Source of the DNA: an uncultured bacterium
GTDB lineage: Bacteria; Fermentibacterota; Fermentibacteria; Fermentibacterales; JCC-6
Reading direction: 5' to 3'
Assembly: GCA_964624405.1 (NCBI GenBank)
Contig: CAZUXA010000008.1
Span: forward strand, 25,078 to 89,077
Length of the DNA stretch: 64,000 nt
Part shown: positions 30,375 to 62,016 of the stretch, piece after piece
How the letters are laid out: each line of letters starts with the position of its first letter
Position numbering within the stretch: position 1 is the stretch's first letter
Program-made: the position numbers and the translations under genes
The notes under the pieces: generated by a model
What the model was told of the DNA's origin: nothing
Databases searched by the model: none
What the model saw: the letters and a program-made list of their open reading frames with translations, nothing else

Positions 30375-30800
30375 ATGCGGCCCAAAACCCCGGAAGTCAC
30401 CGTTGACGCCATCATAGAGTTTGAAAACCGCCGGATTGTACTGGTTGAAAGGAAGTTTCCGCCGAAGGGCTGGGCTCTGCCAGGGGGATTCGTAGACCCC
30501 GGGGAAAGCCTGTTCCAGGCGGTGAAACGGGAAGCACTTGAGGAAACCGGCCTTTCCATCGAAGTAATGTCGCTTTTCCATGTTTACTCCAGGCCCTGGA
30601 GAGACCCGAGGGGAGACACCATAAGCGCCGTATACCACTGCAGGGCCCGGGGAAAACCCGTGGCCGGAGACGACGCCTCAATCGCCAGGGCGTTCCCCTT
30701 CGACGGTCTGCCCGGGAACATGGCTTTCGACCACCGGGAGATAATCGAAGACTTCCTGCGGTGGAAGAACACCGGAATCAGGCCATCCCTGGAAGCCTAG
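30375..30800 (+). CDS. NUDIX hydrolase (start at ATG 30375 with AGGAGGG RBS)
   Basis: The Nudix box GGFVDPGESLFQAVKREALEETG is present. Confidence 0.85.
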   Translation: MRPKTPEVTVDAIIEFENRRIVLVERKFPPKGWALPGGFVDPGESLFQAVKREALEETGLSIEVMSLFHVYSRPWRDPRGDTISAVYHCRARGKPVAGDDASIARAFPFDGLPGNMAFDHREIIEDFLRWKNTGIRPSLEA

Positions 30801-33016
30801 CGGAGTACCGTGGTTTTTCTCAGGTCGCAACCCCCGGAGCCGGATACCCGCTGAATGTAAACCCCGCAAGGCAGGTCATTGGTGTTCCAACTCGCGGTGT
30901 GCCCGCCGGCGGAGAGTTCTCCACGGTGAAGGACATCAACAATCCTTCCCGCCAGATCAAACACCATCAACTCCACATGGCCCGGCGAGGGAACCGAGAA
31001 CTCAACCTCAACCATTCCTGACACCGGATTGGACAAACCCGGAAGAAAAACGGGAGTACCGTGGACAGCCTCCCCCTCAATCCCGGTGGTGGTCCAGACT
31101 ATCTGGGTTACCGCCGGCTCTGAATAGCCGAACTCATTGCTGTTGGCAACCACCAGCACCGTTGTGACATCCTCCCCCTCCGGCCTGGTCACCAACGGCA
31201 CGAAGCAGGCGTTGCCGGGGGTTGCCCACAAGAATGTGCGGCTTTCATCCGAGTTGAGTGAATACACCATGTAATTGTCGCCGTCCGAGGGATCCCACCT
31301 CAGCCTGAGTGTTCCGTTGAAGTCGTCCACCTGGTTGAACTGCTCTACCACAAGACCGGTGGGAGGCGCTGGAACAACGGGTTCGCCCCGGATCACTCCA
31401 AGCCTTCCGATTCTAATCTGATAGTCTTCGATGACGGTCGGGCTCTGAAAGCGCAGGGCGATTATGGAGAGGGTGTGACCCGCCAGAGCCGAGAGGGGAA
31501 ACTGCCACGTGTTCCATCCCTCCGACACACCGTCGGGTACCTGGAAGAAGAAAAAATCCATGGGATCAGACGTTGTGGAAAGGGCCACTTCCATTCCCGA
31601 TGGCGCTGCGGCCTCTCCGCGGTTCCAGACGATTACGAAACTGTCATCCCCCTGCACTGGAGCGTCGGTCTTGTACAGATAGAGCATTGTGGTGTTTGCC
31701 GGGGACAGCTCACCGCCGACCTTCAGGCAGCTTCCGCCGTGGTAGGGGATTTCCCAGTCCAGTTCCGGATACAGCGGAGTTCCGCCGCTGTTCGAGATGT
31801 ACCTCCAGGTTGGAAGCACATCCATCTGGCTTCGGTTGTGCCAGGGGTTCTGGGAAAGAACCTCACCCTCCACCGCGGTGCGGTAGCCCTGTCCGGTGTT
31901 GAAGCTGGTCACGAAGGGAAACGATGTTACGGGAGTTTTGGCCGGAATGTAGTGGGCAATCCCCTTCCAGGGGTATGTTGTCCCGGTGTTCCCCGGATCC
32001 CGGTTCGGCCCCACCCAGAAGTAACTCTCCCGGGAGTAGAAGGCGGCGTGACTCGAAGCGTTGGAGTAAGTCCAGTTCGGACAGTAGAAGCCAAGGCTTG
32101 CCCTGTGGTCCTGTCCCTCCGGGAAAAGCCCTTCCCAGTTGACTCCGGTGTTGTATCCGTTGGACTGGACGTCAACTCCGGCGTAGAGGTCGTAGGGGCT
32201 CCGCCCCAGAGCAATGGCATGGTTCCCGGAACTGGTGAGCCCCGCTGAACTCCACCAGAAGTTCAGGAACATCTCGTCGCTGACGGTCTGGTCTTCATAC
32301 TGAAAGAACCAGTCATTATTGGCGTTCAGGGCATTCTGCCAGGAGATTGCGCCTGTTTTGGTCATGGCGTCGTACCATTGAATCCGCAGATCCGAGTTCA
32401 GCTGAATGTAGATCATCATGTCCCGCATGTCTTCCGCAAGCTGGGTGTTGCCCCCCGCGGTCTCCTGGTTGATGAACCAGCCGTCGAAGCCATAGTACTC
32501 CGCCACCTCGATGAGCTTGTCCGCCACAGGGAATGTGTCTCCCTCCTTCTGAACGAAATCCCATACCCACTGAATCTGGCCGCCGTACTGAACCGGCGGA
32601 AAGAAAACGGTGCCGTAAACAGGCACGCCGTTCCTGTGAGCGGCATCTGTCACTCCGGGGTTCGGCGCCAGTATCAGCCCCTCCCCGGCGCTTCCCCCCC
32701 AGAAAGTCAGGTGTTCGATGTACTGCCAGTATCCGAAGGCGTAAGTGTCGATTCCAGGGCCGCCCTGGGACGGGTTGAAACTGGTGGACGGGTACATGAT
32801 GCTGATTGATGTCACTCCCGCCTGGCCGGGTATTGCGTGGGCGTTGCACTGGGTGTCACCCAGGCTTCTGGTGGCAAGTGGAATCGCGCTTCGATTGTAG
32901 GGGGCGTCCGGGTCGGTGTTCGGGCTCCAGCTGAGAAGATCGGCGGGGTGCCAGTACGAGGCGTAGGGCTGGCCAGGCAGGAATTGCGCCATCAGAACCG
33001 CGGCAAGAATGATCAT
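30797..33016 (-). CDS. GH85 endo-beta-N-acetylglucosaminidase with a T9SS C-terminal sorting domain
   Basis: The GH85 signatures AAHRNGV and FDGWFINQET (catalytic N/E) are present. A C-terminal Por_Secre_tail-like segment reads NPVSGMVEVEF...VFDLAGRIV...CGVYIQRV. Confidence 0.7.
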   Translation of the reverse strand: MIILAAVLMAQFLPGQPYASYWHPADLLSWSPNTDPDAPYNRSAIPLATRSLGDTQCNAHAIPGQAGVTSISIMYPSTSFNPSQGGPGIDTYAFGYWQYIEHLTFWGGSAGEGLILAPNPGVTDAAHRNGVPVYGTVFFPPVQYGGQIQWVWDFVQKEGDTFPVADKLIEVAEYYGFDGWFINQETAGGNTQLAEDMRDMMIYIQLNSDLRIQWYDAMTKTGAISWQNALNANNDWFFQYEDQTVSDEMFLNFWWSSAGLTSSGNHAIALGRSPYDLYAGVDVQSNGYNTGVNWEGLFPEGQDHRASLGFYCPNWTYSNASSHAAFYSRESYFWVGPNRDPGNTGTTYPWKGIAHYIPAKTPVTSFPFVTSFNTGQGYRTAVEGEVLSQNPWHNRSQMDVLPTWRYISNSGGTPLYPELDWEIPYHGGSCLKVGGELSPANTTMLYLYKTDAPVQGDDSFVIVWNRGEAAAPSGMEVALSTTSDPMDFFFFQVPDGVSEGWNTWQFPLSALAGHTLSIIALRFQSPTVIEDYQIRIGRLGVIRGEPVVPAPPTGLVVEQFNQVDDFNGTLRLRWDPSDGDNYMVYSLNSDESRTFLWATPGNACFVPLVTRPEGEDVTTVLVVANSNEFGYSEPAVTQIVWTTTGIEGEAVHGTPVFLPGLSNPVSGMVEVEFSVPSPGHVELMVFDLAGRIVDVLHRGELSAGGHTASWNTNDLPCGVYIQRVSGSGGCDLRKTTVLR

Positions 33017-33035
33017 GTCTACTTCCTTATCGGCA

Positions 33036-33491
33036 TCACCTGTGTTTCCGGAAAAACTCCTTCAGCAGCTTTGAGGCTTCCTCAGCCAGCACTCCCCCCA
33101 CAACCTCCGGGTAGTGGTTCAGATTGGGCATTCCCCGAAGGTCCGCCACGGAGCCGAACGCGCCGAAACGCTTGTCCCAGGCGCCGTAGACCACCAGGGA
33201 TATCCGGGAGAGAAGAACAAGCCCTGCGCACATGACACAGGGTTCGAGGGTGGTGTAAAGCGAGGCGCCGGAGAGCCTCCAGTCACCTGTGGCACGGCAT
33301 GCGTCATCAACGGCCAGTTGCTCGGCGTGGGCCCATGGCCTGCCGGTTTCCCGGGTTCGATTGGACTGTCTATAGACCCCGCCATCGCCGGTGACAAGAA
33401 CCGCGCCCACCGGCACCTCTCCCCTGTCGAAAGCCTTTACCGCCTCTTCCATGGCCATGCCCATGAAATCCAGATGAATCGGGTTCGTCAT
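33036..33491 (-). CDS. tadA: tRNA-specific adenosine deaminase
   Basis: The HAE and PCVMC zinc-binding motifs are present, at 151 aa. Confidence 0.9.
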   Translation of the reverse strand: MTNPIHLDFMGMAMEEAVKAFDRGEVPVGAVLVTGDGGVYRQSNRTRETGRPWAHAEQLAVDDACRATGDWRLSGASLYTTLEPCVMCAGLVLLSRISLVVYGAWDKRFGAFGSVADLRGMPNLNHYPEVVGGVLAEEASKLLKEFFRKHR

Positions 33492-38858: not shown

Positions 38859-40277
38859 CTACAGGCGCATCACGATGAAGGATGTTCTGCCGTCGCGCCA
38901 GACAAGAAGCAAAGCGTTTCCAATCGAGTTTTCCAGTGCGCTTTCCACATCGGCGGGTGTTCTCACTCTTCTGCGGTTCACTTCCAGAATCACATCTCCC
39001 GCTTGAAGTCCCGCTCTCATCGCGTTGCCGTCCGGGGAAACATCCACGATAAGCACCGCTTCAGTATTATGTATTCCAAGACGCTCCGCCCGGTTCCCGT
39101 CCAGCTCCTGAAGCCGCCAGCCACGTTCGGATTCCTGAACCCGCGGAGTTTGGCCGGCGGCGGCGGGGGCGTCGGTTTGCGAGCCGAGACGCACCCTTAC
39201 AGTGCGCTCCCTGCCATTGCGTAGAACCGAGAAAGACACCCTGGTTCCGGGTTCTGTGGCGGCTATCCTGTTTCGGAATGAGGGGACGGAGGAAACCGGC
39301 TCACTCTCCACGGCGATGATGATGTCGCCCCTTTCAAGACCGGAACCCGATGCGGGGGTATCAGGAAGAATGTCCGCCAGCAGAACACCGGCAATCCCGT
39401 CCTGAACCCCGAACTGGCTTCGCAGTTCCTCGGTAAGCTCCTGTATCACCACACCGAGCCATCCCCTGCGGACCTCGCCGTAGAGAATCAGGTCGCTCAT
39501 AACATCCTGCACCATTTCAACCGGTATGGCGAAACCGATTCCCTGGTTTCCGCCGGTGCGGCTGGCGATGGCGGTGTTGATTCCGATAAGCTGGCCCCGA
39601 AGGTTCACCAGGGCGCCGCCGCTGTTGCCGGGATTGATTGCGGCATCGGTCTGGATGTAGGATTCGTAGTCCGCGAGGCCCACCCCTTCCCGTCCCAGAA
39701 AGCTGATGATTCCCTGGGTAACGGTCTGGCTCAGGGCGAAGGGGGAGCCTATGGCCAGCACCCATTCCCCCACCCTGGCTCCCCGGCTCTGGCCCATGGC
39801 AACCGCCGGAAGTCCCTCGGCTTCGATGCGAATCACAGCCAGGTCGGTTCTGCTGTCGGACGCCACCAGTTTCCCGGGATACACCTCACCGTTGGAAAGA
39901 ACAACTTCCAGCTCATGGGCCTCTCCGGCTACATGATGGTTCGTGACTATGAAACCGTCTTCCGTGACGATGACGCCACTGCCCAGACCCCTGCGGGTGA
40001 ACTCCCTCTCCCGGGGGGGGCCGAATCCGTAGAAACCCCAGGGAGTCATCCCGAAACCCGGGGATGTGGTGGTGACGGTGGTGCGGGAATTGATGGTGAC
40101 CACACTGGGCCCCACCATCTCCGCGATATCCGCGAAAAGCTCACTGATGGCCATCGGATCGCTGACATACACAGTGACCGTGTCGGGCTTCGCCTCAAAA
40201 CCTGCAACGGGAAACTCAGGAAGGGATTGCAGGAAAAACAGAGATACTGCGGCGAAGCTCAATAGTACCGTTGTCAA
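38859..40277 (-). CDS. htrA: periplasmic serine endoprotease DegP/HtrA (trypsin-like domain + 2 PDZ)
   Basis: The catalytic triad context (TNHHV, DLAVI, GNSGGAL) and two PDZ-like segments are present. Confidence 0.9.
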   Translation of the reverse strand: MTTVLLSFAAVSLFFLQSLPEFPVAGFEAKPDTVTVYVSDPMAISELFADIAEMVGPSVVTINSRTTVTTTSPGFGMTPWGFYGFGPPREREFTRRGLGSGVIVTEDGFIVTNHHVAGEAHELEVVLSNGEVYPGKLVASDSRTDLAVIRIEAEGLPAVAMGQSRGARVGEWVLAIGSPFALSQTVTQGIISFLGREGVGLADYESYIQTDAAINPGNSGGALVNLRGQLIGINTAIASRTGGNQGIGFAIPVEMVQDVMSDLILYGEVRRGWLGVVIQELTEELRSQFGVQDGIAGVLLADILPDTPASGSGLERGDIIIAVESEPVSSVPSFRNRIAATEPGTRVSFSVLRNGRERTVRVRLGSQTDAPAAAGQTPRVQESERGWRLQELDGNRAERLGIHNTEAVLIVDVSPDGNAMRAGLQAGDVILEVNRRRVRTPADVESALENSIGNALLLVWRDGRTSFIVMRL

Positions 40278-41055: not shown

Positions 41056-41784
41056 TCAGAACCTTGCTTCCAGGCCGAGAACCGCGTAGTTCAACCAGGC
41101 GAAACTGTACACCGACTCAACATCGGCGCCGCCCTCGATGGTTCTGTAACCCCCGAGAAGGCTCACCCTGTCGCTGATTTCACGGCTCAGTTTCAGCGAC
41201 ACATCGAAAGCCCGGCCGGGACCGCCGGCAAGACCGTTGAAATCAAGCACGAAGCTGGTGCCGGGGCAGAACATGTACTCCCCCCGAAGGTAGAGCAGGG
41301 GCACGAAACCCAGGTCGGTCTTTTCCGTGTAGAGGTTTTCCTGTTCCAGGCTTATCTTCGCGTCACGGATCTTGGCGGTAAACCCGAAACGCCACCGCCA
41401 TGATTCACCTTCATGAAAAAGGTAACCGTAGCCAACCCGCCACGAGTTGAACTTGAAAACGACATCGGTTGCCCCCGGGGGAAACACCGTACCCTCGAAA
41501 ACCGCCTCTTCGGAAAGCTCCACGCTTTCAGCAATCTGCAGCGGGGCAAGGGTGATCTGCAGCCGGTGCCTGTAGCCCGGATCCCAGTTGATGAACACTC
41601 TTCCCGCTCCCACCGGACCGGCGCCCGCAAGGTCGACAAGGTCGATCTCAGTGGCTTCGGGGTTGTTTGGAATTCGAAAGTCGTTCCGGGCCTGCCACAC
41701 CAGCCCACCCTCAAACTCCGCGGAAAAGCCAGCGGCACAAACCCCGGCGGCAATCAGGACCAATACGGGCAGAAGATTTTTCAT
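41056..41784 (-). CDS. hypothetical outer-membrane beta-barrel protein (start ATG 41784, GGAGG RBS)
   Basis: A signal peptide (MKNLLPVLVLIAAGVCAAGFSA), beta-strand periodicity and a C-terminal aromatic (..LEARF) are present. Confidence 0.5.
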   Translation of the reverse strand: MKNLLPVLVLIAAGVCAAGFSAEFEGGLVWQARNDFRIPNNPEATEIDLVDLAGAGPVGAGRVFINWDPGYRHRLQITLAPLQIAESVELSEEAVFEGTVFPPGATDVVFKFNSWRVGYGYLFHEGESWRWRFGFTAKIRDAKISLEQENLYTEKTDLGFVPLLYLRGEYMFCPGTSFVLDFNGLAGGPGRAFDVSLKLSREISDRVSLLGGYRTIEGGADVESVYSFAWLNYAVLGLEARF

Positions 41785-41859: not shown

Positions 41860-42531
41860 TTAGAAGAGGGACTTGATGGCTCCCCAGGAGTCACGGGTGA
41901 GGGAGGTTTCCGCGCCGCTGAGAATCATGAACTGCTCGTAGGCTTCGCCCCAGGCAGCCTGGCTGGTGATCCAGCTGCCGCCGTTGTCCTGGCTGAAGTA
42001 GGTCTGGTCGGCCCAGGTCTGGCTGGTGCAAAGCCAGTAGTGAGCGCCGGCGCCGCCGGTGGTCTGCATGGCGAACCAGTACTTGGTTCCACCGGTGAAG
42101 GTGATGTTGTCGGTAGGCGCGACCTCGGTGTACCAGATGGCGTATCCCCACTGGGAGAGACCGGTGTTCTCGTGGTAGGGGGTGCCGGAGGTGGTGCTCT
42201 GAACGATGGCTCCGGGGCCGGAACCGCTGTCGGAGCGGAGCTGAATGTTGAATCCGGTGCAGCTGGCGGAAGCGTAGATGGCCCAGATTTCGATGTTGTC
42301 GATGTAGCCATCAACTGCGTAGGTGAAGTCGTCGGCGATCATCCAGCTGTTGGGCTGGGAGAAGCCAACGCCGTTCACGAGGTTCGCGAAGACGAAGGGC
42401 TGGGAGCAGATGACATCTTCAAGGCTTACGCCTACGGGAATCAGCTCCTGGTTCAGGTGGCCGAGCTGGCTGGGGGGGGCCGCAAGGGCGAGCCCTGCGA
42501 GCAGTACCACGATAAGAGCGGTAATCTTCAT
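41860..42531 (-). CDS. small secreted protein with C-terminal SWGAIKSLF tail (start ATG 42531, AAGGAG RBS)
   Basis: A signal peptide and a G/S/T/W/Y-rich beta-sandwich-like body are present. The tail ...SLTRDSWGAIKSLF is shared with 47408..48007. Confidence 0.55.
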   Translation of the reverse strand: MKITALIVVLLAGLALAAPPSQLGHLNQELIPVGVSLEDVICSQPFVFANLVNGVGFSQPNSWMIADDFTYAVDGYIDNIEIWAIYASASCTGFNIQLRSDSGSGPGAIVQSTTSGTPYHENTGLSQWGYAIWYTEVAPTDNITFTGGTKYWFAMQTTGGAGAHYWLCTSQTWADQTYFSQDNGGSWITSQAAWGEAYEQFMILSGAETSLTRDSWGAIKSLF

Positions 42532-42623
42532 TAAGATACTCCTTCTATGTTGGGGTTGCACTCAAGGAACAATGGGTTTCATAACGCCGGTCACAGGGCG
42601 TGTCAAGCCTTTGGAGCAGGGGG

Positions 42624-44147
42624 CTAAATCTCCTTCCAGAGCTCCGGAGACGCCGGAAGCCCGCGAAGAGCCTGCTCGTTTACCTTCACACCGAACCTGT
42701 TTCTCTGTTCAAGAAGAAACCCGTCAGTGTACTCGGCCTCGAGACGGTTCTGCGCCGCGTCACGAAGCCTGTCTTCCAGCTCATCAATTGTGGCCGGCCT
42801 CGGGGGAATCACCTCCAGAAGCCTGAACGCCCCGAAGAAGCCGGGCTCTATCTCGAAGGGACCCATCCAGGTGGTGGTGTCGTCGGCATCAATGTCGAAC
42901 AGCGCCGATGAGATGTTTCCGGGAAGACCGACCCTCATCAGCGGCACTGTCACACCCGGGCTGTCCTGGGAGGCGGAAAGCCCCGGAACAGGTGGAAATG
43001 ATTCCGGACCCCCGGGCTCGAGAAGAGAGTTCCGGAACCGGTCAAGGTCTTCGATTCCCGAAGACGCCGTTGCGAAAACCCGCCGCTCGGCGGTGAGTAC
43101 CGGCTCGGAAAGCAGTGAGTACTCCCGCTCAAGGTCTTCCCTGGTAACCTCGACATGACGAAGAACATGCTCCCTCATCAGCAGTTCCGCTCCGCGGCGC
43201 CTGCTGAATGCCAGCGAGGCCTGAACAACGGAGTCGGCTGCGGCGGGGTACCGGGCCTGGAGAAGGTTTTTGAAGTGGCTCTGCATGAACAGGTTCTCAG
43301 TTATCATGTCTATCCATTCAGGGCCTGAACTCAGGTAGGGAACCCTTGTCTGGAAGAAGCGGAGTTCCTGCTCCAGCTGCCCCCTGGTCCATTCTCCGAG
43401 CGGGGATGAAACAACGACCGAGTCCTCCGGGATGGATGAGATATCCCCCAAACCCTGGCTGACCAGTGTTCCCGGATCACTTCGCAGGACATAATAGGTT
43501 TTCAGGTAATGAAACCTTTCCCTGCCGTAGCCGATGATCTGGATGAGGGTGCTGTCCGGTTCCGACGAAGGCCGGGAATGGGGCATGTTGTCGAAAAGGG
43601 AGTCGAGAACCACGCTTCCATACTCCTCCAGAACAACGCTCTGCCCGGGGCTGAGCCCGTTCAGCGCTGAAGCCAGCTCGCGGGGAAGCTCGGTTAGAGG
43701 CAGGGGGCCAATTGGTCCAGTATCCTCAAGGGTGAACCATGCCATCACGCCCTCCCGTGCCCTGAAGAAATCCAGGTCGGAATCGTTGACAGAAGCCATC
43801 TCTTCATGAGCGAGCAGAGACCTGGCCCGGATGGCGGATTCCACCCTGAGCCATGACGACGTAAAGGCTGTCAGATCGGGATCGTCAAGAATGCCTGAAG
43901 AATCAAGAAGGACCTCCAGCGCCGCCTTTCCCGCCAGCGCTTCCACAAACTCCCGGGATGGATTATCCGACCGTGCGAAGAAGGCTCTGTCCGATTCTTC
44001 GAGGCCTTCCCACAATACTCCGGCCTCGCGGACAGTTACGGTGTCGTTTTCCGTGGCCACAAGCCAGGTATCGCCGTCCACCGCCGGTGATCCGCATCCC
44101 GATGCAATCATGAACAAAGTAAAACCATAAACAGCAGCGCGTTTCAT
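42624..44147 (-). CDS. hypothetical lipoprotein (start ATG 44147), possibly chaperone/SurA-like
   Basis: A lipobox MIASGC|G is present, with no firm domain call. Confidence 0.4.
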   Translation of the reverse strand: MKRAAVYGFTLFMIASGCGSPAVDGDTWLVATENDTVTVREAGVLWEGLEESDRAFFARSDNPSREFVEALAGKAALEVLLDSSGILDDPDLTAFTSSWLRVESAIRARSLLAHEEMASVNDSDLDFFRAREGVMAWFTLEDTGPIGPLPLTELPRELASALNGLSPGQSVVLEEYGSVVLDSLFDNMPHSRPSSEPDSTLIQIIGYGRERFHYLKTYYVLRSDPGTLVSQGLGDISSIPEDSVVVSSPLGEWTRGQLEQELRFFQTRVPYLSSGPEWIDMITENLFMQSHFKNLLQARYPAAADSVVQASLAFSRRRGAELLMREHVLRHVEVTREDLEREYSLLSEPVLTAERRVFATASSGIEDLDRFRNSLLEPGGPESFPPVPGLSASQDSPGVTVPLMRVGLPGNISSALFDIDADDTTTWMGPFEIEPGFFGAFRLLEVIPPRPATIDELEDRLRDAAQNRLEAEYTDGFLLEQRNRFGVKVNEQALRGLPASPELWKEI

Positions 44148-44232
44148 AGAAGTACCCCCGACTGAGTCATTGGAAAACACCCGAAGCGGTACAAAGGCAA
44201 ACCTCATGCATTATAGCGAGGCTTGCCCGTGT

Positions 44233-44269
44233 GGAACAAACGGAAGGGGCAACCCGCCGGGGCTGCCCC
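44233..44269 (-). terminator. rho-independent terminator of the subtilase gene (GGGGCAGCCCCGGCGGGTTGCCCC + TTCCGTTTGTT on minus strand)
   Basis: The GC hairpin and T-rich tail lie 25 nt after the stop. Confidence 0.6.
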
Positions 44270-44294
44270 TGCTATCGACAGGCTTGCGGAGCTT

Positions 44295-46019
44295 CTAGCG
44301 AACCACGGTCATACGGCTTGCCGCGGTGCCGGCCGGGGTCGCGGCCCGCACGAAGTAAATGCCGCTGCCCAGGTTCTCGGGAAGGCTCCAGATGTAGCTG
44401 TGGGTACCCGATGCGAGGTTGCCGGAGTGAACCTGCGCCACGGCTCTGCCCGCCACATCGAATACCTGGATGGACACCGCCCCCTCAAAGGGCATGTGGA
44501 GGGAAAAGGCCGCCGCGTTCGAAACGGGGTTGGGAGAAACGCCGGAAAGAAGCTGCGCGGAAGGCGGGACATCAAAATGGGTTTCGCCCTCGGTACCCAC
44601 CATCTGAAGCGCTGCCAGCGCAGCCTGGTAGGCATCCACCCTGCCGGCTCCGTAGGTGTTGTCCTTGCCCGCCGAGCCCAGGTCGAGGGAAGTCATCTCG
44701 ATGAGGGAATCAAGCTGTGCGACGGTGAGCTCAGGGTTGATGCTGAGAAGCAGCGCCGCGACTCCCGCCAGGTGAGGCGTGGCCATGGAGGTGCCGCTCA
44801 TGGTGGTGTATCCGCTGTAAAGGGCGGTGCTGAGAACATCAACACCCGGGCCGCTGATGTCGGGCTTGATCAGGGGCTGTGAATCACTGTAATCGAACCA
44901 GGGGGACACGCCTCCCCACCAGGTCACCGGACCCCGGCTGGACCAGCTGGCGATCTGGTCGCTGGTATTGGTTGCTCCTACTGTGACCACCGCGGTCTGG
45001 CCGCCCTCAAAAATCTGATCGGGATGGAACCAGGGGGGAGGGCAGTCACCGCTGGCCCTGATGGTTCCCGCTCCGGACCCGCTGTTGCCCGCGGCGACAC
45101 TGTGGTACACACCCGCGAGCAGAAGGTTCTCCTCAGCTGTTCTGAGGGTGGCATTGCCCACCGGGGTTGTTCCCAGTGACATGGTGAGCACCGAAGCGCC
45201 GTTCTCGGTGGCGAACTCCATGGCCTGTATCCAGGTGGGAAAACCGCCGGTGTAGTAGTGGATCCTCAAAGCCATGATGGTGGCCGAGGGCGCCACGCCG
45301 GTCTGGGTTCCCGCGGTGCCGTCGCCGGCCACTGTGCCGGCGCAATGGGTTCCGTGACCGTCATCGTCCATGGGATCCAGAGGGTTGCCGCTTCCGTAGA
45401 AGTTGTAACCGTAATGGTAGCCGGCATCGGTGTCGTGCCACATGTTGTTCCCGAGATCGGAATGGTTGTAGTTCACACCGGTGTCGATGACGCCAACGAT
45501 CACCCCCTGCCCCTCGTAGCCCAGGGCCCACACATCAGGGGCGTTGATCTTGTCCACACCCCAGGCGTTCGCCATGAGCAGTTCTTCCCTGGTTGCCTCC
45601 CGGCGCTCCACAGGCTCGATTAGAGCGCCTTCCGGGGCGCCGTGGTCAATGAAGCGGACATCGGGCCTGGCGGCGAGAAGCCTCACGACTTCAGGCGCGG
45701 CTTCACAGTAGAAACCGTTCAGCAGCCAGAAGGGAACCAGCCTTTCAACCCGGTGGTCTTCCAGAAATGCCAGAACACTCTGCTGTGAAAGCGCAGCGTT
45801 GGACTTGAGAGCCTCCACCACGAACTGCTGCCTGTCCCCCCGGGTCATTCCCGCGGTGGCGGCCTGAATCCAGTCAATGTCCGGAGCGGCGCTCATGTGT
45901 ACCACAATGGGAACCAGCTCTCCGGGGACAGCCCCGGCCATGTTCTGGAGAACATCGGGGTGAATGTATCCGGAGTTGGCAACTCCGGCCATAACCATGA
46001 GAAGCAGAATCTTCATCAC
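44295..46019 (-). CDS. S8 subtilisin-like serine protease with T9SS C-terminal sorting domain
   Basis: The catalytic D (VIDTGV), H (HGTHCAGT) and S (GTSMATPHLAG) are present. The C-terminal Por_Secre_tail reads PNPVSN...IQVFDVAGRAV...GIYFVRAA. Confidence 0.85.
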   Translation of the reverse strand: MMKILLLMVMAGVANSGYIHPDVLQNMAGAVPGELVPIVVHMSAAPDIDWIQAATAGMTRGDRQQFVVEALKSNAALSQQSVLAFLEDHRVERLVPFWLLNGFYCEAAPEVVRLLAARPDVRFIDHGAPEGALIEPVERREATREELLMANAWGVDKINAPDVWALGYEGQGVIVGVIDTGVNYNHSDLGNNMWHDTDAGYHYGYNFYGSGNPLDPMDDDGHGTHCAGTVAGDGTAGTQTGVAPSATIMALRIHYYTGGFPTWIQAMEFATENGASVLTMSLGTTPVGNATLRTAEENLLLAGVYHSVAAGNSGSGAGTIRASGDCPPPWFHPDQIFEGGQTAVVTVGATNTSDQIASWSSRGPVTWWGGVSPWFDYSDSQPLIKPDISGPGVDVLSTALYSGYTTMSGTSMATPHLAGVAALLLSINPELTVAQLDSLIEMTSLDLGSAGKDNTYGAGRVDAYQAALAALQMVGTEGETHFDVPPSAQLLSGVSPNPVSNAAAFSLHMPFEGAVSIQVFDVAGRAVAQVHSGNLASGTHSYIWSLPENLGSGIYFVRAATPAGTAASRMTVVR

Positions 46020-46101
46020 TGTTTCGTCCTTTCCATAACGGGTTCCATATCAGCGCAATACTTGGGACAGAACTCAGGCTCCGTGCTTCATTTCATCCAT
46101 A

Positions 46102-46118
46102 CCTATCAATGTGATAGG
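46102..46118. promoter_or_regulatory. perfect palindrome CCTATCA-atg-TGATAGG in the divergent intergenic region (candidate operator)
   Basis: The 7-bp inverted repeat with 3-nt spacer lies between the S8 protease start and the propeller-lipoprotein start. Confidence 0.4.
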
Positions 46119-46273
46119 ATAACAGAACGGGCCCGCAAAAACCATGCGTTCAGAACAGCCCGATTACTGCTACCCGCTTCCCCGGCCCCGGGTTCCGGAG
46201 CAAGGCCCCCGCCGGCAGTTGACAGGGCGTGTTTTGAATATATTCTTGCGGAACACAACTGGAGGAATCATCT

Positions 46274-47380
46274 ATGAACAGGTTGATATTCGTGATAAGC
46301 GGCGTATTACTCATTTCAGGATGCGAAAACGCAGCCATCCCCGCCGAGTCCGGGGTATCTTTATGCACCCTTTCGATTATTGACTCGGTAGGCGTGGAAC
46401 TTGGAGATTCGGCGTACATCTTCGGGGCCATACTGGGTGCGGAGTTCATGCCCTTCGGGGGATTCGCGGTTCTGGACAGGGCGGCGGGCAACATCAGGCT
46501 CTACTCTGACACCGGTTCCCATCAGAGAACAATCAGCCGCGGGGGAAGCGGCCCGGGTGAGATTGTGCAGGCCTACGGCCTTATTGTGTGGCCCAACGGA
46601 GACATGGGCGTCTTCGACCCCTACCAGGGCGGTCTGATGCGGTTCAACCCCGGGGGAGAATACCTGGGGCTTCAGTTTGAAGCGGTCCAGAACATTCCTC
46701 TCGATCCTGTAATGGTGGGAGACTCATCCTATGTAGCGATGAGATCCGCCATCCACCATGAGAACGATCAGGTTTTTGTGGAAAGCTTTCTGGGCAGTTT
46801 TCCAATGACCTGGGAGCCTTCCGTCAAGTACATCTCGGATCTGACCCTGTTTGATCCGAGCGGACTGGGCGACTTTCTGATAAGCACCTTTTTCTATCGG
46901 CCATGGACGGTGGACCGCAGAAGGGGAACGGTGTATGTGGCCCCATACGACCAAGGCAGATACAGCATCATGGTGTTCAACCCTGATGGTAGCTCCGGGG
47001 GTGTTCTCACCCTGCCCACGGTTCCGGTGGAGAAAACCCCGGACGAAATCGCCGGGGAAAGGGAATACATCGCCGCCTTCCTCACCGCCGCCGAGGGAGG
47101 AGACCCGATGTACAATGTATGGTGCGATCCTCTCCCCTTCAAACACCCGGTGGGCTCCATGACCGTGGACGACGCTGGAAACCTCTGGGTGCTCCGGGGT
47201 GATCGGGACGATGTGTTCTTCAATGTCTGGAACGCCTCGGGAGAACATGCCTTCGACTGTGTTCTGCCAGGGGTTCCCGGTGGGGACATTCGATTCAGAG
47301 TGTCTGGTAACCGTATGCTTCTCTACCGGGAAAACCCCCTGGATTATCAGAAGATATACATCATCGCCGTTCCATGGTAG
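46274..47380 (+). CDS. NHL-repeat / 6-bladed beta-propeller lipoprotein (paralog of 22528..23655)
   Basis: A lipobox LLISGC|E and GSGPGEI...GDMGVFD are present. The N-terminal block is conserved with the first copy, and both end in ..YIID/..YIIAVPW. Confidence 0.6.
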   Translation: MNRLIFVISGVLLISGCENAAIPAESGVSLCTLSIIDSVGVELGDSAYIFGAILGAEFMPFGGFAVLDRAAGNIRLYSDTGSHQRTISRGGSGPGEIVQAYGLIVWPNGDMGVFDPYQGGLMRFNPGGEYLGLQFEAVQNIPLDPVMVGDSSYVAMRSAIHHENDQVFVESFLGSFPMTWEPSVKYISDLTLFDPSGLGDFLISTFFYRPWTVDRRRGTVYVAPYDQGRYSIMVFNPDGSSGGVLTLPTVPVEKTPDEIAGEREYIAAFLTAAEGGDPMYNVWCDPLPFKHPVGSMTVDDAGNLWVLRGDRDDVFFNVWNASGEHAFDCVLPGVPGGDIRFRVSGNRMLLYRENPLDYQKIYIIAVPW

Positions 47381-47407
47381 CGCTCGAATGTTCACGAAGG
47401 GGGGATC

Positions 47408-48007
47408 ATGAAGGCTTCTGTTCTGCTGGCGGCTGCGGCGGTGGCCAATGCCGCGACGGTAACCTTCGAATGGGAATGCTCCGCCACGGTTCTGGGTCTC
47501 ACCGGAACCGGAGACCCGCCCATCATCGCGGGCCTGGTTTCGGACCCTGTCCACGGCGGCGCCCAGGCTCTCAGGCTTGAGGACAACTCCCCCACAGGGA
47601 CGCCCCAGGCCTTCGTAGCGTGGATTGTTGGCCTTTCAGACGGGGATGAGGTGACAGCAGGCGTGTGGCGCTACGACACCACACCGGGAACTCAACCCCC
47701 GTCCTGCCGAATCTGGGCCCACTGGAACGACAGTCCCGACAACATCTACGGCTACAACGGCAGCGCCGGAGGGAACAGCAGCTACGGCCCGGGAACCGGT
47801 TGGGACATGGTCGAGCACTCCTGGACCGTTACCGACGGTCATACCGGTCTGATCGTGGTTGTCCGCACCTACTCCGAGCCCGGCGATACGGTTTACATCG
47901 ACGATCTTGCGGTTACCGCGCCGGCCGGGGCCACGGTATGGACGCCCGGGAACTACCTTTCCCTGCAGGCAAACACCTGGGGCGCAATAAAAGGCTACAC
48001 CTGGTAG
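47408..48007 (+). CDS. small secreted protein with C-terminal TWGAIKGYTW tail
   Basis: A signal peptide and a lectin/CBM-like body (DTVYIDDLAV) are present. The tail SLQANTWGAIKGYTW matches that of 41860..42531. Confidence 0.55.
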   Translation: MKASVLLAAAAVANAATVTFEWECSATVLGLTGTGDPPIIAGLVSDPVHGGAQALRLEDNSPTGTPQAFVAWIVGLSDGDEVTAGVWRYDTTPGTQPPSCRIWAHWNDSPDNIYGYNGSAGGNSSYGPGTGWDMVEHSWTVTDGHTGLIVVVRTYSEPGDTVYIDDLAVTAPAGATVWTPGNYLSLQANTWGAIKGYTW

Positions 48008-57896: not shown

Positions 57897-59069
57897 ATGG
57901 TTTTCGTGATCCTTGCTCTGACGGTGCTGATGGTTTCTACTCCATCACCCAGAGAACTATCGGAAAGAACTGAACCCTGGGTACGGGAAGATGTCACAAT
58001 CACCTCGGTATCCGAGTTCCACACCTCCGACTTCCTCCGTGAGGGGGAAAGGGTTCACCTCCTTCACCACGCCTTCCTCGATGACGAGAACGAAACACTC
58101 CGCACCGTTGTCTGCACTGACACGCGGGTGATCGTGCTGGAAGAGGGTTTGGTGCAGAGAGAGATAGTTCTGGAGCACACGATCAATCATGCCAATATAT
58201 CCCCAATGGGAATGTTTCTGGTTTCCCATCGAGACATGGATGCTCCTTCAAGTGCTCGATCCCTTAGGGTTGATACCGAGACGGGGGAACAGATCCATTT
58301 CACCACTCACCCCGGGCGGGAAATGCAGGTCAATGAACCATGGACATGGCCACAGGATGACGGTTCGCTGGTAACTAGACTGGGAAGCTACCTATGGTTT
58401 TTTGATACTGATCTAAACCCTGCGCAAGAACTCCGTGTCTCACCTTGGGGTTCCGATGTATGGGCTGCAAGAAACACAGACATTGTTTTTGTTTCCGGCA
58501 CAACACTGTCGGCTTACAACCGTCGTGGCGAACTTCTATGGACCATCTCCGATGAGTACAATCGGGCCAGGGTCAACAGTGCAGCGATTTCTGATGACGG
58601 CAGCCTCGTGGGGCTAGCATCGCGTGATGGGGCATTCCTTTTTGACGGAACTACAGGAACCGTCGTCGCGGAGTACTTCACAACCGGGAATACTGGCTTT
58701 GGTGTTGGTCAGATCATCTTAAGCCCTTTGGGAAAAAGATTTCTTGTTATACGGTTAGACGATCGAGTTATCGTATCATCGGGTTGTCTGGAAACAGGAG
58801 AGCAATACTCCTTTGCTTTGGGTGCCCGTGTTCGAGCCATACTGGATTGCGGGATCGCGCTTCTGGATTCCATGGTATTGGATTCACACCTCAATCCGTA
58901 CTACGTTCCGGGCAGGCATATCTACGCGATCTCCTCTTCAGGGAGAAGACTTGTCCAGGCTTCCGAGTGGTTCCCGACGCACCCTAACTCTGCCTTCGCT
59001 GCTACTGGTATACAGAGCGTTCTGCCTGCTGGATTCCAGGTTATGGAGCTTCAGGCAGGAGGCAACTGA
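57897..59069 (+). CDS. secreted PQQ/WD-like beta-propeller protein (start ATG 57897, AGGAGGG RBS)
   Basis: A signal peptide is present, with repeated ...GELLWT.../...DGSLVG...DG... blade-like motifs. It is translationally coupled to the next gene by an ATGA-type overlap. Confidence 0.55.
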   Translation: MVFVILALTVLMVSTPSPRELSERTEPWVREDVTITSVSEFHTSDFLREGERVHLLHHAFLDDENETLRTVVCTDTRVIVLEEGLVQREIVLEHTINHANISPMGMFLVSHRDMDAPSSARSLRVDTETGEQIHFTTHPGREMQVNEPWTWPQDDGSLVTRLGSYLWFFDTDLNPAQELRVSPWGSDVWAARNTDIVFVSGTTLSAYNRRGELLWTISDEYNRARVNSAAISDDGSLVGLASRDGAFLFDGTTGTVVAEYFTTGNTGFGVGQIILSPLGKRFLVIRLDDRVIVSSGCLETGEQYSFALGARVRAILDCGIALLDSMVLDSHLNPYYVPGRHIYAISSSGRRLVQASEWFPTHPNSAFAATGIQSVLPAGFQVMELQAGGN

Positions 59070-59071
59070 TC

Positions 59072-61813
59072 ATGAAGAAGACTGCCTTCACTTTCTACTG
59101 CTGCCTGATCGGGATGCTTGGCTCCGGTGCTGCAACAAGTGATCCATTCGACTACAACCCTGGCTTCATCCGATTCCCTTTTGCTCGAAGTGGTTCTGAC
59201 TTCACTAACACCTGCAAGGGATATGGCGACAACAATATGGGTTTTGGTCTGAAGCTCTTCCACGCTGGCGTGGACTTCCAGGCAGAAGACACAACGGAGT
59301 ATGTCAGAACACCTTTCGACCCCGCTTATGTCATTCGTGCAGATTCAGATAGTCTTCAGCTTGACTGGCGTGTTATCTTCGGTCTTTCCGCCAACGCAGA
59401 AACGGGATGGGGATATCACCACCTTTATCGTCCCCAAGGATTTGCTGTAACCGACTCATTTACAGGCCTTGTTTCACCCGTAGTCGTAACGCCGGATCTT
59501 GGTCCTCATGTGCACATTGACTGGTGCATTAACTTGAATAGTATCTATGTGGAGGGTAATCTTATCGTATACGACAGCTACATCAATCCCCTTGACTACT
59601 TTCTGAACAAGCCTTCGAACTATGACCATCCTGAGCTTGGAGAGGTTTCAGGCTCTTCGACCGGGCTACGAATACAGAATACACAGGGCTTTTTGCCGGA
59701 CACAGCTGTTTTCGGCCAGGTTCATTTTGTGGCTCGTCCGGTTTCTGCTCCGGACTATGGTTCAACATCAGATTCCGTCGGAGTCAGATACCTTCGGCAC
59801 AGGGTGCTCAGGCAGGATCCTTACACCGGCGAGTATGCTCCTCTTCCATGGTACGACTGGCGAACACTGTTCAGTATGAACGGGTTCATCCCTTTTCAGG
59901 GTGATGAGTTCTTTGATTTCGTATACGCCACAACTTCAGGCCACTATCACAGCGAATACCTCCTTAACAACTGCGGCACCACCCCAGTTGGTCTGAACGC
60001 TGATTCTGCCTTCAACAATGTCTGGACTGCCGGGTACGATCGCGCGCAGGACTGGGCTGATGGTGTGTTCTGCCGGGGAGCCTTCGATACGAGGCTGGGA
60101 ACTAGTACTTACAACCAGCAGAGCTGCGACAACAGCAACGCCTTGATCCCCGACGGCCGCTACTGCGTTGAGATGGAGGCGTACTCACATGGAAACTCGC
60201 AAGCGCAGACATGGAGGCTCCCTGTGCTTGATGTGGCAGCCGAGAACCTGTCGCCTGGCGACTCGTCAAATGTACGAGGGTTCATCGTGGACAACTTTGC
60301 TCCCCATGTTGCCTCTCTTCTCGTTTACTTGCCTGTGGAACCCGGTTCTCCCGACACTATCTACAACGCTGAGTGGATTCTGTCCCCATCCATGGACCAA
60401 CGACACCTCGCTGGAGGAGATCTTGCGATGTACCTCAGTGAATCCCAAGAGCAATGGGTTGGTGTTGCTGTGCTCTTCTCGGAAACGATGGCTTCTTTGC
60501 CTGACATTTGGATAAGCGGAGAATGGGGAGGTCAGATACGATGGACTTCAGCTAACCTCACCGCGACAGAGTGGGACTATGACAACTTGGGAGAACCTCC
60601 TTCTGCGCCTCCTGGCCATTCCTGGCAGTCTTACAGGACAGATTCCGGAATTACGACCTACCATGGAGCCCTAAGACTGAACATTCAAGGGGGAGCAGAC
60701 CTCTCAGGAAACAGCATTGACGCCAACCCGGCAACAATTGCGGTCCGTGATGCTAACGGCAACTTCTCCGGTTATGAACAAGGCACTGATAACGGATACA
60801 TCTGGGGCACAACCATCCCGATTTGGTCTAAAAATAGCTCAGATCTAACAAAAGTGGAAAGCTACAATACTCGATACGGGTTTCTTGAGGCTACGATCAG
60901 CTATTTCTTCGGTCAGTACAAAATACTCGCTGGGGCTATACCTATCACTCAATACAGCAGTTGCCCCTACTGGCATGGCTTCTGGATGATGAGGAATCAA
61001 AGTTCACAGCCCCCCTCCATGACTTCACCGCGAGTGTGTATAATCGATTTTAATGGAACAGTTGTTCGAACTTTTCTTTTGGGTAATGCGCACACGCTCT
61101 ATCCAGTAAGTATCGATTCTGAGAACTCCTCCCATATTGATGTGCATCTACAGACAGGCAGTGTTGAAGATGGAACTTTCGGCGACTACCTCTGGGTTTC
61201 AATAACAAATTACGAACCAAGTATGGTGTTCTGGGGAGCGTACTATGTAACTTTTCTAAAATGCTTCACCGCACAGGGGTTGACCAGTCATCACCACATA
61301 TCGAAGGGGTTTGCTTACTTTCGTGATTCAAATGAGATCGTGTTCTACGACTCATTACGGTCAGTTTCTACCAATGGAAGCTCTTGTATTTATGACTGGA
61401 TTGAGCAAAACCCCAACGAACCTTACAACATCCATGGAAGCTACAATGGTAGTTACTTCAATTTCAGCCCCCCCGGAATTGGCACCGGAGATACCGATCC
61501 GGTCAGATCAAGCCGTCAAGACTCTGGTATTGCTGATGCTTCGGAAGTTCCTTCTGTTGCCTTCGGTCTTTCGATCAATCGGAATCCAGTCTCTTCGGAG
61601 TTGATGCTCCGGATCAGTCTGGAGCGTTCTGGTCCTGTTGAAGTGTTCATCTATGACATTGCAGGCAGAACAGTGCTGAAGGCTCTCGAGGAGGACTTGT
61701 CCGCAGGAGTACACAGCCTGACTGTGCCGGTTCATCTTCCCGGCGGCATCTACTTCTGCAGGCTCCGTTCCGGGTCCGACATCGCCTCGGAGAAACTGGT
61801 GATCCTTCGATAG
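59072..61813 (+). CDS. large secreted protein with an N-terminal M23 (lysostaphin/LytM-like) peptidase domain, central W/Y/G/N-rich region, and a T9SS C-terminal sorting domain
   Basis: The M23 motifs HAGVDF (H-x-x-x-D, aa about 64) and HVH (aa about 146) are present. Their spacing is lysostaphin-like (..GVDF..TEYVRTPFDPAYVI..GWGYHHLY..GPHVHIDW). The C-terminal segment is NPVSSELMLRISL...VFIYDIAGRTV...GIYFCRL. Confidence 0.6.
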   Translation: MKKTAFTFYCCLIGMLGSGAATSDPFDYNPGFIRFPFARSGSDFTNTCKGYGDNNMGFGLKLFHAGVDFQAEDTTEYVRTPFDPAYVIRADSDSLQLDWRVIFGLSANAETGWGYHHLYRPQGFAVTDSFTGLVSPVVVTPDLGPHVHIDWCINLNSIYVEGNLIVYDSYINPLDYFLNKPSNYDHPELGEVSGSSTGLRIQNTQGFLPDTAVFGQVHFVARPVSAPDYGSTSDSVGVRYLRHRVLRQDPYTGEYAPLPWYDWRTLFSMNGFIPFQGDEFFDFVYATTSGHYHSEYLLNNCGTTPVGLNADSAFNNVWTAGYDRAQDWADGVFCRGAFDTRLGTSTYNQQSCDNSNALIPDGRYCVEMEAYSHGNSQAQTWRLPVLDVAAENLSPGDSSNVRGFIVDNFAPHVASLLVYLPVEPGSPDTIYNAEWILSPSMDQRHLAGGDLAMYLSESQEQWVGVAVLFSETMASLPDIWISGEWGGQIRWTSANLTATEWDYDNLGEPPSAPPGHSWQSYRTDSGITTYHGALRLNIQGGADLSGNSIDANPATIAVRDANGNFSGYEQGTDNGYIWGTTIPIWSKNSSDLTKVESYNTRYGFLEATISYFFGQYKILAGAIPITQYSSCPYWHGFWMMRNQSSQPPSMTSPRVCIIDFNGTVVRTFLLGNAHTLYPVSIDSENSSHIDVHLQTGSVEDGTFGDYLWVSITNYEPSMVFWGAYYVTFLKCFTAQGLTSHHHISKGFAYFRDSNEIVFYDSLRSVSTNGSSCIYDWIEQNPNEPYNIHGSYNGSYFNFSPPGIGTGDTDPVRSSRQDSGIADASEVPSVAFGLSINRNPVSSELMLRISLERSGPVEVFIYDIAGRTVLKALEEDLSAGVHSLTVPVHLPGGIYFCRLRSGSDIASEKLVILR

Positions 61814-61980
61814 GTACTGAAACCCTCCGGCTCCACACCCGAGCGATCGGAGGACATCCGATGACGAATATGTTCTCTGTCAGCCACCGAGATCCCGATG
61901 CGCAGAGTGCAGTCCGTACGAGTGTTGTTGGAACGATGGTGAAGTCGATTCATGGTATGACAGGTGGCTCTTCATCATAT

Positions 61981-61994
61981 GGGGGGTGCCCCCC
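61981..61994. terminator. GGGGGG-tg-CCCCCC hairpin between the island operon end and tRNA-Glu
   Basis: An inverted G6/C6 repeat is present. The loop is short, so function is uncertain. Confidence 0.3.
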
Positions 61995-62016
61995 TTAATG
62001 GTGTTGAGCGTGAAAG

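Follow-up and report, generated by a model that had tools for sequence, protein, structure and literature searches.

The DNA analysed here is a 64 kb stretch of contig CAZUXA010000008.1 (GenBank assembly GCA_964624405.1, Fermentibacterota), called the window in what follows; all coordinates refer to it unless a locus is named. Two of its genes encode small, predicted exported proteins, A and B, which have bodies of different fold and nearly identical last residues, here termed the tail. An initial annotation had drawn attention to this pair, and both open reading frames (ORFs) are indeed present, as public gene calls of 223 and 199 amino acids (aa). The signal peptides listed below are of the Sec/signal peptidase I type, with cleavage sites placed by eye, and the tails are taken from the translation.

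41860..42531, (-) strand: protein A, 223 aa, exported β-sandwich protein with the tail; stop codon 41860-41862; the ORF equals the public gene call
42481..42531, (-) strand: signal peptide of A, MKITALIVVLLAGLALA, followed by APPSQ
41863..41904, (-) strand: tail of A, SLTRDSWGAIKSLF
47408..48007, (+) strand: protein B, 199 aa, exported jelly-roll protein with the tail; stop codon 48005-48007; the ORF equals the public gene call
47408..47452, (+) strand: signal peptide of B, MKASVLLAAAAVANA, followed by ATVTF
47960..48004, (+) strand: tail of B, SLQANTWGAIKGYTW

Among the long ORFs of the window, a six-frame scan found the pattern W-[GAS]-x-[IVLM]-[KR] within 12 residues of the stop codon in A and B only. 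The BLASTP alignment of the two proteins was limited to their tails and, when the family profiles of A and B were compared with hhalign, only the last 20 columns aligned (E 4.2e-5). The bodies remained unaligned, in agreement with the original description of two different bodies with near-identical ends. The corresponding tail codons show synonymous differences (GGA/GGC, GCC/GCA, ATC/ATA and AAG/AAA), which indicates that the likeness lies at the level of the peptide and is not that of a DNA repeat.

Monomer models of both proteins were predicted with AlphaFold2 (AF2). In the model of A, a helix at residues 3-16 and a disordered stretch precede the body, a β-sandwich formed by residues ~40-208 with predicted local distance difference test (pLDDT) scores of 85-97, and the tail (residues 209-223) scores below 50. 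The model of B is a jelly roll (mean pLDDT 86.9, body above 90) that ends near residue 185, and the TWGAIK sequence of its tail forms a short helix at residues 191-196, outside the body, with a block-mean pLDDT of ~59-66. As predicted by these models, the tail is a conserved, flexible appendage outside the fold in both proteins.

Fold searches with Foldseek returned β-sandwiches of different types for the two models. The best matches of B were to the carbohydrate-binding module (CBM) families CBM4-2 and CBM22 (E ~1e-6), and across CBM4-2, CBM22 and CBM16 the matches had E values of 1.5e-6 to 1e-4 and template modelling (TM) scores of 0.4-0.66. None of the Pfam CBM models passes for B, and the likeness to CBM4, CBM22 and CBM16 is at the level of the fold. 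Protein A matched other sandwiches, including phage receptor-binding and PHR-type domains. It also matched the NCBIfam model for choice-of-anchor R (NF041539) with 23.3 bits against a cutoff of 30 (E 5e-5, profile positions 13-145 of 155), and is probably a distant relative of this family and not a certified member. Choice-of-anchor domains are named for their occurrence with varying C-terminal anchors.

Conservation of the tail in homologues and metagenomes

In all 50 clusters of A homologues (44-100% identity) the C-terminal residues fit [ST]-W-[GA]-x-[IV]-K-x-[LSM]-[FV], with one to three extra residues in four of the clusters and a terminal V in one. In an alignment of 46 sequences R213, W216 and K220 are invariant, L211, I219, L222 and F223 are at least 96% conserved, and the mean majority frequency is 0.77 in the tail (last 14 residues) vs 0.68 in the folded body. 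For B, 198 homologue clusters were found and the tails were examined in the 120 that were listed, and in most of these the protein closes with [ST]-W-[GAS]-x-I-K-x-x-[FWYL], in some cases with R or RP added. Across 49 tail-bearing homologues of B, [ST]W..IK is 80-98% conserved; variant endings run past the aromatic residue or lack it (..ALYR, ..LFRP, ..SSAL, ..SLSW), and a related form of the tail, ...SW[SA]xIKAL[YF]R, occurs in other metagenome-assembled genomes (MAGs), one of them named Eisenbacteria. The members of both families were found by homology of the body and not by a pattern. In the two together, W and K never vary and I is conserved to 97%, the [ST] at position -1 having been fixed by the regular expression used in this count. 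The Lys is conserved to 100% across all families, including the variants without a terminal Phe.

The A homologues that carry names are all Fermentibacteria, and the named homologues overall belong to Candidatus Fermentibacteria/Fermentibacteraceae, Sabulitectum and Aegiribacteria; a taxonomy look-up assigns Sabulitectum to Candidatus Fermentibacterota and Aegiribacteria to 'FCB group incertae sedis'. Those B-family members that are named by their source are all called hypothetical proteins. When the tail alignment was modelled over 42 columns and searched as a hidden Markov model (HMM) against 1.84 billion representatives, 14 proteins were returned, 13 of which match the whole stretch at or near the C-terminus and have sizes like those of the A family, the other being a repetitive artefact. 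A word-index protein search with the tail-only alignment gave 14 candidates and no matches.

In about ten homologues of B (60-66% identity over 81-90% of B) a PEP-CTERM signal stands in place of the tail. Five of these have a precomputed PF07589 match and the others were recognised from sequence; one comes from a named Phycisphaerae MAG. The exchanged signal is a textbook PEP-CTERM, with VPEP, a hydrophobic helix and RRR, and the alignments share the same junction, after ...TAPDxATI. A sorting or anchoring tag would be expected to behave in this way, with exchange of the tail for PEP-CTERM at a single junction. Two further B homologues, P0107 and P0130 (the latter named Eisenbacteria), have 'APEP' or 'APAPP' directly before the tail (..LAPEPPVPVNDISWAAIKALFRP), which may be left over from conversion of one signal into the other, or may be coincidence.

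The distribution of the tail beyond these two families was assessed by scanning metagenome DNA for sequences encoding L-x3-[ST]-W-G-x-I-K-x-x-F-stop. The figures that follow are among the matches listed, the loci of which were fetched (0.93 Mb). At least 122 matches were obtained, and at least 99 of these end ORFs of 60 aa or more. The remaining matches, at the ends of ORFs of 1-37 aa, appear to be chance occurrences (for example ...LLWSCWGVIKYQF). As a control, 2.9 million viral contigs (IMG/VR) were scanned with the same pattern and gave four matches, all at the ends of ORFs of 23 aa or less. Trimmed of their last 16 residues, the 99 carriers together with A and B fell into at least 26 BLASTP components, or ~20-25 body families after chance matches and fragments had been set aside. 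The A family has 14 members with A included and the B family four with B included, and the largest component is a different, third family of 29. The check by pattern search that had been suggested at the outset thus revealed many families, and the alternative outcome then envisaged, a motif confined to two proteins, is contradicted both by the homologues and by the metagenome carriers.

The carriers are small (median ~240 aa). Some contain recognisable Pfam or NCBIfam domains (Laminin_G_3, LTD, DNRLRE, DUF4082, DUF7901, DUF6923, DUF4350 and choice-of-anchor R), and most match no family in either database. Given the fold matches of A and B to CBM and other sandwich modules, the carriers look like stand-alone binding modules, each a predicted single-domain, lectin- or CBM-like β-sandwich. 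A crude signal-peptide heuristic was passed by 59 of the 74 ORFs with complete 5' ends, and most of those that failed either visibly have a signal peptide or are (frameshift) fragments. The G+C content of the loci with true matches ranges from 38 to 70%.

Positions left free by the search pattern are nevertheless conserved in the carriers (counted from W: A/S at -6, 68%; E/D/Q at -4, 68%; R/Q at -3, 73%; T/S/A at +5, 90%), and no conservation is seen upstream of -7. The resulting consensus spans 14 residues, [AS]-L-[EDQ]-[RQ]-x-[ST]-W-G-x-I-K-[TSA]-x-F-COOH; the terminal Phe is present in 91% of tails, and the Lys has three residues after it in 105 of 112 cases. The non-overlapping ORFs of the fetched DNA add up to 293,000 residues, and in them the core [ST]W[GAS]x[IV]K occurs 117 times within six residues of a stop codon and once internally, where ~0.6 occurrences would be expected by chance (an estimate from typical residue frequencies). 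This also disposes of the concern that the motif might not be C-terminal in homologues. Fifteen of the 117 terminal cases lie outside the search pattern, in flanking genes that are often tandem paralogues. Several tail genes can occur in one genome, with seven on three contigs of UBA6080, four in binchicken_co7_179 and two in the window.

Tandem arrays of two to three paralogous tail genes were observed at seven loci (L003 800-3179, L013 3741-11762, L063 1952-4360, L131, L112, L033 and L133 1342-3100), and in L013 one tail gene abuts a T9SS-CTD gene (type IX secretion system, C-terminal domain) with no intergenic gap. In L017 (18-752) and L118 (6252-7183) a stop or frameshift just before the tail leaves an orphan tail ORF of 15-88 aa; such interrupted tail genes in metagenome contigs are putative assembly errors or pseudogenes.

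No Pfam or NCBIfam model matches more than eight of 96 carriers; choice-of-anchor R matches eight of these 96 (A and B not counted) at E values up to 10. A profile search of the PDB with the tail gave chance-level matches only, and no PDB chain carries it. Full-text literature searches (motif strings, Fermentibacteria together with secretion, choice-of-anchor) returned nothing relevant. The tail is covered by no existing Pfam, NCBIfam or PDB entry.

Overall, the comparison of homologues and loci shows a modular tail, strictly C-terminal and borne by many unrelated, predicted exported proteins, that is under purifying selection at the peptide level.

Gene neighbourhoods and candidate partners

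The genes around A and B in the window are as follows.

38859-40277: HtrA with two PDZ domains, ~1.6 kb from A
41056..41784, (-) strand: probable small outer-membrane β-barrel protein (outer-membrane protein, OMP), ending ...VLGLEARF; context only
42624..44147, (-) strand, upstream of A: lipoprotein with lipobox IASG/C, remotely parvulin/SurA-like
44295..46019, (-) strand: S8 subtilase with a T9SS type-A CTD (Peptidase_S8 E 3e-52; TIGR04183 33.9 bits vs cutoff 23)
46274..47380, (+) strand: lipoprotein with lipobox LISG/C and a weak match to a six-bladed propeller (DUF5128 E 8e-4, below cutoff)

The two gene orders originally claimed, S8 (with T9SS CTD)-lipoprotein-A-OMP and propeller lipoprotein-B, are present as described. 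The significance then attached to them as operons diverging from a palindrome did not survive comparison with other loci, which points to a local arrangement. The OMP was rejected as a partner of A because none of the 13 related loci has it downstream of A and the backbone contains its slot even without A, and the propeller lipoprotein was rejected as a partner of B because the B orthologues in L136 and L138 lack that neighbour. The backbone is seen in a related MAG (L136, contig_7224), where it reads TldD, PmbA, HtrA, nitroreductase and a 300-aa gene of unassigned family on the (-) strand, then B on the (+) strand, a histidine kinase and a TonB receptor. No S8, lipoprotein, A or propeller gene lies between the 300-aa gene and B in this MAG, and the A cluster is found ~470 kb away on the same contig. 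By comparison, the window at 41860-47380 has the S8-lipoprotein-A and propeller block between the gene in the OMP position and B, a rearrangement or insertion relative to L136.

Directly after the S8 stop codon lies a strong terminator-like hairpin (44270-44245 on the (-) strand, 11-bp stem with eight GC pairs, T-rich tail), and S8 is therefore possibly not co-transcribed with A; it may form a transcript separate from that of the lipoprotein-A pair. The intergenic palindrome, CCTATCAatgTGATAGG, is an inverted repeat of only 7+3+7 nt (~46103-46119, read by eye), accompanied by an imperfect 9-nt repeat with arms 101 nt apart, and it was discarded as a meaningful element since it is too short to weigh. 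The same intergenic region, between S8 and the propeller gene, contains a promoter-like site at 46219-46246 on the (+) strand (TTGACA, 16 nt, TATTCT, resembling -35 and -10 elements). The palindrome and this site could be the operator and promoter of the propeller-B pair.

Only one neighbour of A recurs beside tail genes elsewhere, namely the SurA-like lipoprotein encoded at 42624-44147, which makes it a candidate partner. Its homologues (22-51% identity) adjoin tail genes co-directionally in 11 loci and in two gene orders, next to at least three groups of tail proteins that BLAST separates, and their lipobox Cys is invariant. Five of eight members show weak similarity to Rotamase_2 (E ~0.01), and weak profile matches were also obtained to the peptidyl-prolyl isomerases 8hm3 and HP_0175 in the PDB. 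The lipoprotein may nevertheless track the choice-of-anchor-R-like body rather than the tail.

In loci orthologous to that of A (L001, L002, L005 and L024/L117), one or two genes for exported transglutaminase-core proteins (PF01841, E 1e-15) come directly after A, and a VIT-VWA protein encoded upstream resembles the 'sortase target' family TIGR03788 (420 bits vs cutoff 552). The conserved cluster of VIT-VWA protein, SurA-like lipoprotein, A and transglutaminase-core protein (5790-12720 in L001) often lies between two S8/T9SS proteases. Several apparent members of the transglutaminase cluster proved to be the A gene read in another frame. Neither the window nor the loci of other tail families contain transglutaminase-like genes, which, being found beside A orthologues only, were rejected as a general partner.

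T9SS cargo with a type-A CTD is abundant in the fetched DNA (41 of 924 ORFs, including S8, C25 and GH85 enzymes). In the window it is encoded at 30800-33061 (-), 44295-46019 (-) and 58988-61810 (+). A link between the tail and the T9SS through gene neighbourhood was rejected, as the large 'family' that had suggested it is joined only by T9SS CTDs. Likewise, the C25 protein encoded beside B in Sabulitectum was rejected as a PorU (48 bits vs cutoff 420); it is a C25/T9SS-CTD protein. Positions 58000-62000 of the window have a G+C content of 0.51 vs ~0.60 elsewhere and encode a protein of 913 aa that matches a T9SS CTD weakly and another of 390 aa and unassigned family; this segment may be an acquired island.

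A possible role of the tail

The favoured explanation, to which we give an even chance, is that the tail is a new sorting or anchoring tag without a membrane span, recognised, once Sec has exported the carrier, by a partner that is soluble or lies in the outer membrane. The carriers would cross the inner membrane by Sec, with removal of the N-terminal signal peptide, and, since the tail has no hydrophobic segment, the whole protein would be freed into the periplasm. In that compartment a partner common to the carriers, soluble or in the outer membrane and not an intramembrane sortase, would recognise the exposed, flexible tail and would direct the carrier to the cell surface or hold it there. 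The tail would in this way stand functionally in place of the PEP-CTERM signal of homologues in another phylum. As far as the named sequences indicate, it is Candidatus Fermentibacterota that append the tail to many unrelated small, predicted exported proteins. In a bolder and more tentative form, possible but well short of probable, the tail would be the address label of an unrecognised envelope pathway in Fermentibacterota, with a variant form in other FCB-group lineages. A peptide of ~14 residues with no membrane anchor would be read in the periplasm or at the outer membrane by a dedicated receptor or enzyme; this may be a parvulin-like lipoprotein, a protein of the Omp85 type or an enzyme with the transglutaminase fold that would act on the invariant Lys. 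The pathway would be distinct from sortase, exosortase, rhombosortase, myxosortase and T9SS.

A checklist of eight attributes is available for small C-terminal sorting signals (Haft, 10.1101/2023.06.07.544157). The tail shows attributes 1, 2, 3, 6, 7 and 8, that is, a position at the extreme C-terminus, several copies per genome, at least three invariant residues, carriers that have signal peptides and are otherwise unrelated, and homologues with another signal. The original suggestion of a new short sorting or recognition tag is thus upheld in so far as the element is conserved, modular, strictly C-terminal on unrelated exported proteins and exchanged with PEP-CTERM; its sorting or anchoring role, the place of reading and the reader we infer.

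Several observations weigh against the favoured explanation. The tail lacks attributes 4 and 5 of the checklist: there is no hydrophobic segment of transmembrane length, only three to five residues without a hydrophobic run following the Lys, and there is no terminal basic cluster, the tail ending in F, W or at most one R (..ALYR). As every established signal of this class has a transmembrane helix and an Arg cluster, analogy is the sole argument for function. Clustering of all neighbours gave no neighbour family shared by all tail genes, and the neighbourhood analysis found no cognate enzyme or receptor. T9SS cargo is not enriched beside tail genes (eight of 161 adjacent ORFs vs 33 of 646 other ORFs, odds ratio 0.97, p = 1). 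Finally, the metagenome scan was restricted by its own pattern (G at +1, terminal F, L at -5), and an organism is assigned for a minority of the metagenome contigs.

Among the alternatives, the tail could be a docking or chaperone-binding peptide, a permanent, dockerin-like interaction motif for a common periplasmic or surface partner such as the SurA-like lipoprotein, which would stay uncleaved and would carry no transport address. This is rather unlikely. The recurrence of the lipoprotein family beside three or more groups of tail proteins is consistent with docking, as are the nature of the carriers (CBM-like, Laminin_G_3 or LTD modules, of use only if tethered) and the short helix predicted for the tail of B, in which W, I and the C-terminal hydrophobic residues are spaced i, i+3 and i+6/7. 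The lipoprotein is, however, found beside only ~10% of tail genes, possibly only those with choice-of-anchor-R-like bodies, which suggests that it may follow the body and not the tail, and, PEP-CTERM being a sorting signal that is cleaved, the exchange with it is more in keeping with an address or anchor. An improbable alternative is mimicry of the β-signal, in which the tail would imitate the C-terminal strand of an OMP and dock by strand augmentation on BamA or another Omp85 protein, for display or translocation. The β-signal is the last strand of a β-barrel, with the pattern polar-x-G-x-x-hydrophobic-x-aromatic(COOH), and the tail shares with it the extreme C-terminus of an envelope protein, the frequent terminal Phe, a hydrophobic residue at -4 and a nearby Gly. 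Moreover, darobactin, a peptide that binds BamA, has the sequence WNWSKSF, with a W...K-S-F ending similar to the tail. The register differs, however: counted from the C-terminus, the Gly of the tail is at -6 instead of -5, the invariant Lys is at -3 and a small polar residue is at -2, where the two probable OMPs of the locus, ending canonically in ..GLEARF and ..GLEYEF, have A or Y. This difference in register and polar positions from the two local OMP endings argues that the tail is not a canonical β-signal. Many variants also extend past the aromatic residue or lose it (ending in YR, FRP, AL or W), the carriers are predicted to be soluble sandwiches and not barrels, and AF2 predicts no strand. 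The β-signal-like strand that had been offered as one reading at the outset is accordingly a weak proposal.

The invariant Lys, together with the transglutaminase-core neighbours, gave rise to the idea of covalent cross-linking, in which this Lys would accept an isopeptide or peptidoglycan link from an L,D-transpeptidase or from a secreted enzyme resembling transglutaminases. The carrier would thereby be attached to a surface matrix, much as Braun's lipoprotein is held by its C-terminal Lys. Like that protein and transglutaminase Lys-acceptor tags, the tail has an invariant Lys near the C-terminus of an envelope protein, retained even in variants without the terminal Phe, and in the A-orthologous loci the PF01841 genes directly follow A, with a VIT-VWA gene upstream. 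Cross-linking is nonetheless quite improbable. The Lys of the tail is not terminal and lies inside a longer motif in which W, G and I vary no more than K does; this speaks for recognition rather than chemistry alone. The link to an enzyme is limited to a single carrier family and does not extend to the window, the second transglutaminase-core copy may lack its catalytic His (read by eye), and PF01841 proteins are often proteases and not cross-linkers. It is very unlikely that the tail serves quality control or regulation as a C-terminal degron or PDZ ligand of a periplasmic PDZ protease (HtrA/DegQ or Ctp). The hydrophobic C-terminus x-[TSA]-x-F does resemble class I/II PDZ ligands and HtrA is encoded close to A, but conservation over 14 residues with invariant W, G, I and K exceeds the need of such a ligand, HtrA belongs to the syntenic backbone that occurs without A, and exchange with PEP-CTERM would be unexpected for a degron. 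The remaining reading, that the tail is nothing special, can point to two β-sandwich bodies and a short motif, and would ascribe the tail to chance resemblance, to a shared last strand of related folds or to a DNA repeat at the 3' ends of genes. All three origins are effectively excluded by the hhalign match on the tail alone, the 117 terminal cases against one internal, the ~20-25 unrelated carrier families among the matches listed, the differing codons, the predicted position of the tail outside both folds and the empty viral control.

Comparison with known C-terminal signals

It had been proposed from the start that the tail is none of the known signals PEP-CTERM, LPXTG and GlyGly-CTERM and no T9SS CTD, and that it lacks a transmembrane segment; both statements hold. 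The tail resembles the tripartite signals (PEP-CTERM/exosortase, LPXTG, GlyGly-CTERM, PGF-CTERM and MYXO-CTERM) in its C-terminal position, in having at least three near-invariant residues, in occurring several times per genome and in being borne by signal-peptide proteins that share nothing else. Unlike these signals it has neither a transmembrane helix nor a basic cluster, which implies that it could not be held in the inner membrane and presented to an intramembrane sortase. Neighbourhood analysis identified no exosortase-like partner.

With the T9SS CTD the tail shares the C-terminal position, the absence of a membrane span, its occurrence on Sec-exported proteins of the FCB group and, on the favoured explanation, reading in the periplasm. 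The CTD, however, is a folded, Ig-like domain of 70-100 aa, whereas the tail has ~14 residues and is predicted to be unstructured, and T9SS cargo has a median length of 571 aa compared with 240 aa for the tail carriers. T9SS CTD models (TIGR04183/PF18962 and type B) matched none of A, B and 96 other carriers, even at E values up to 10. The same models match the neighbouring S8 protease and so work in this organism, which uses the T9SS for other cargo.

A conceptual analogy, and nothing further, is offered by the eukaryotic signals KDEL and PTS1 (-SKL), which are short, read by receptors at a free C-terminus and devoid of a membrane segment; they show no homology to the tail and serve another compartment.

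Recognition of the tag would label a whole class of probable surface proteins in the genomes of Fermentibacterota, which are abundant in anaerobic digesters and sediments, at up to 8% of the biomass (PMC5030696). Short C-terminal signals have previously led to envelope machinery, namely the sortases, exosortases, rhombosortases and myxosortases, and an HMM of the tail would likewise provide a handle for phylogenetic profiling toward the reading mechanism. A membrane-spanning segment is common to all signals of the known class, and the enzymes known or proposed to process them are associated with the membrane (10.1101/2023.06.07.544157). A conserved tag without such a segment, carried by dozens of predicted exported binding modules, would point to a different mechanism of reading.

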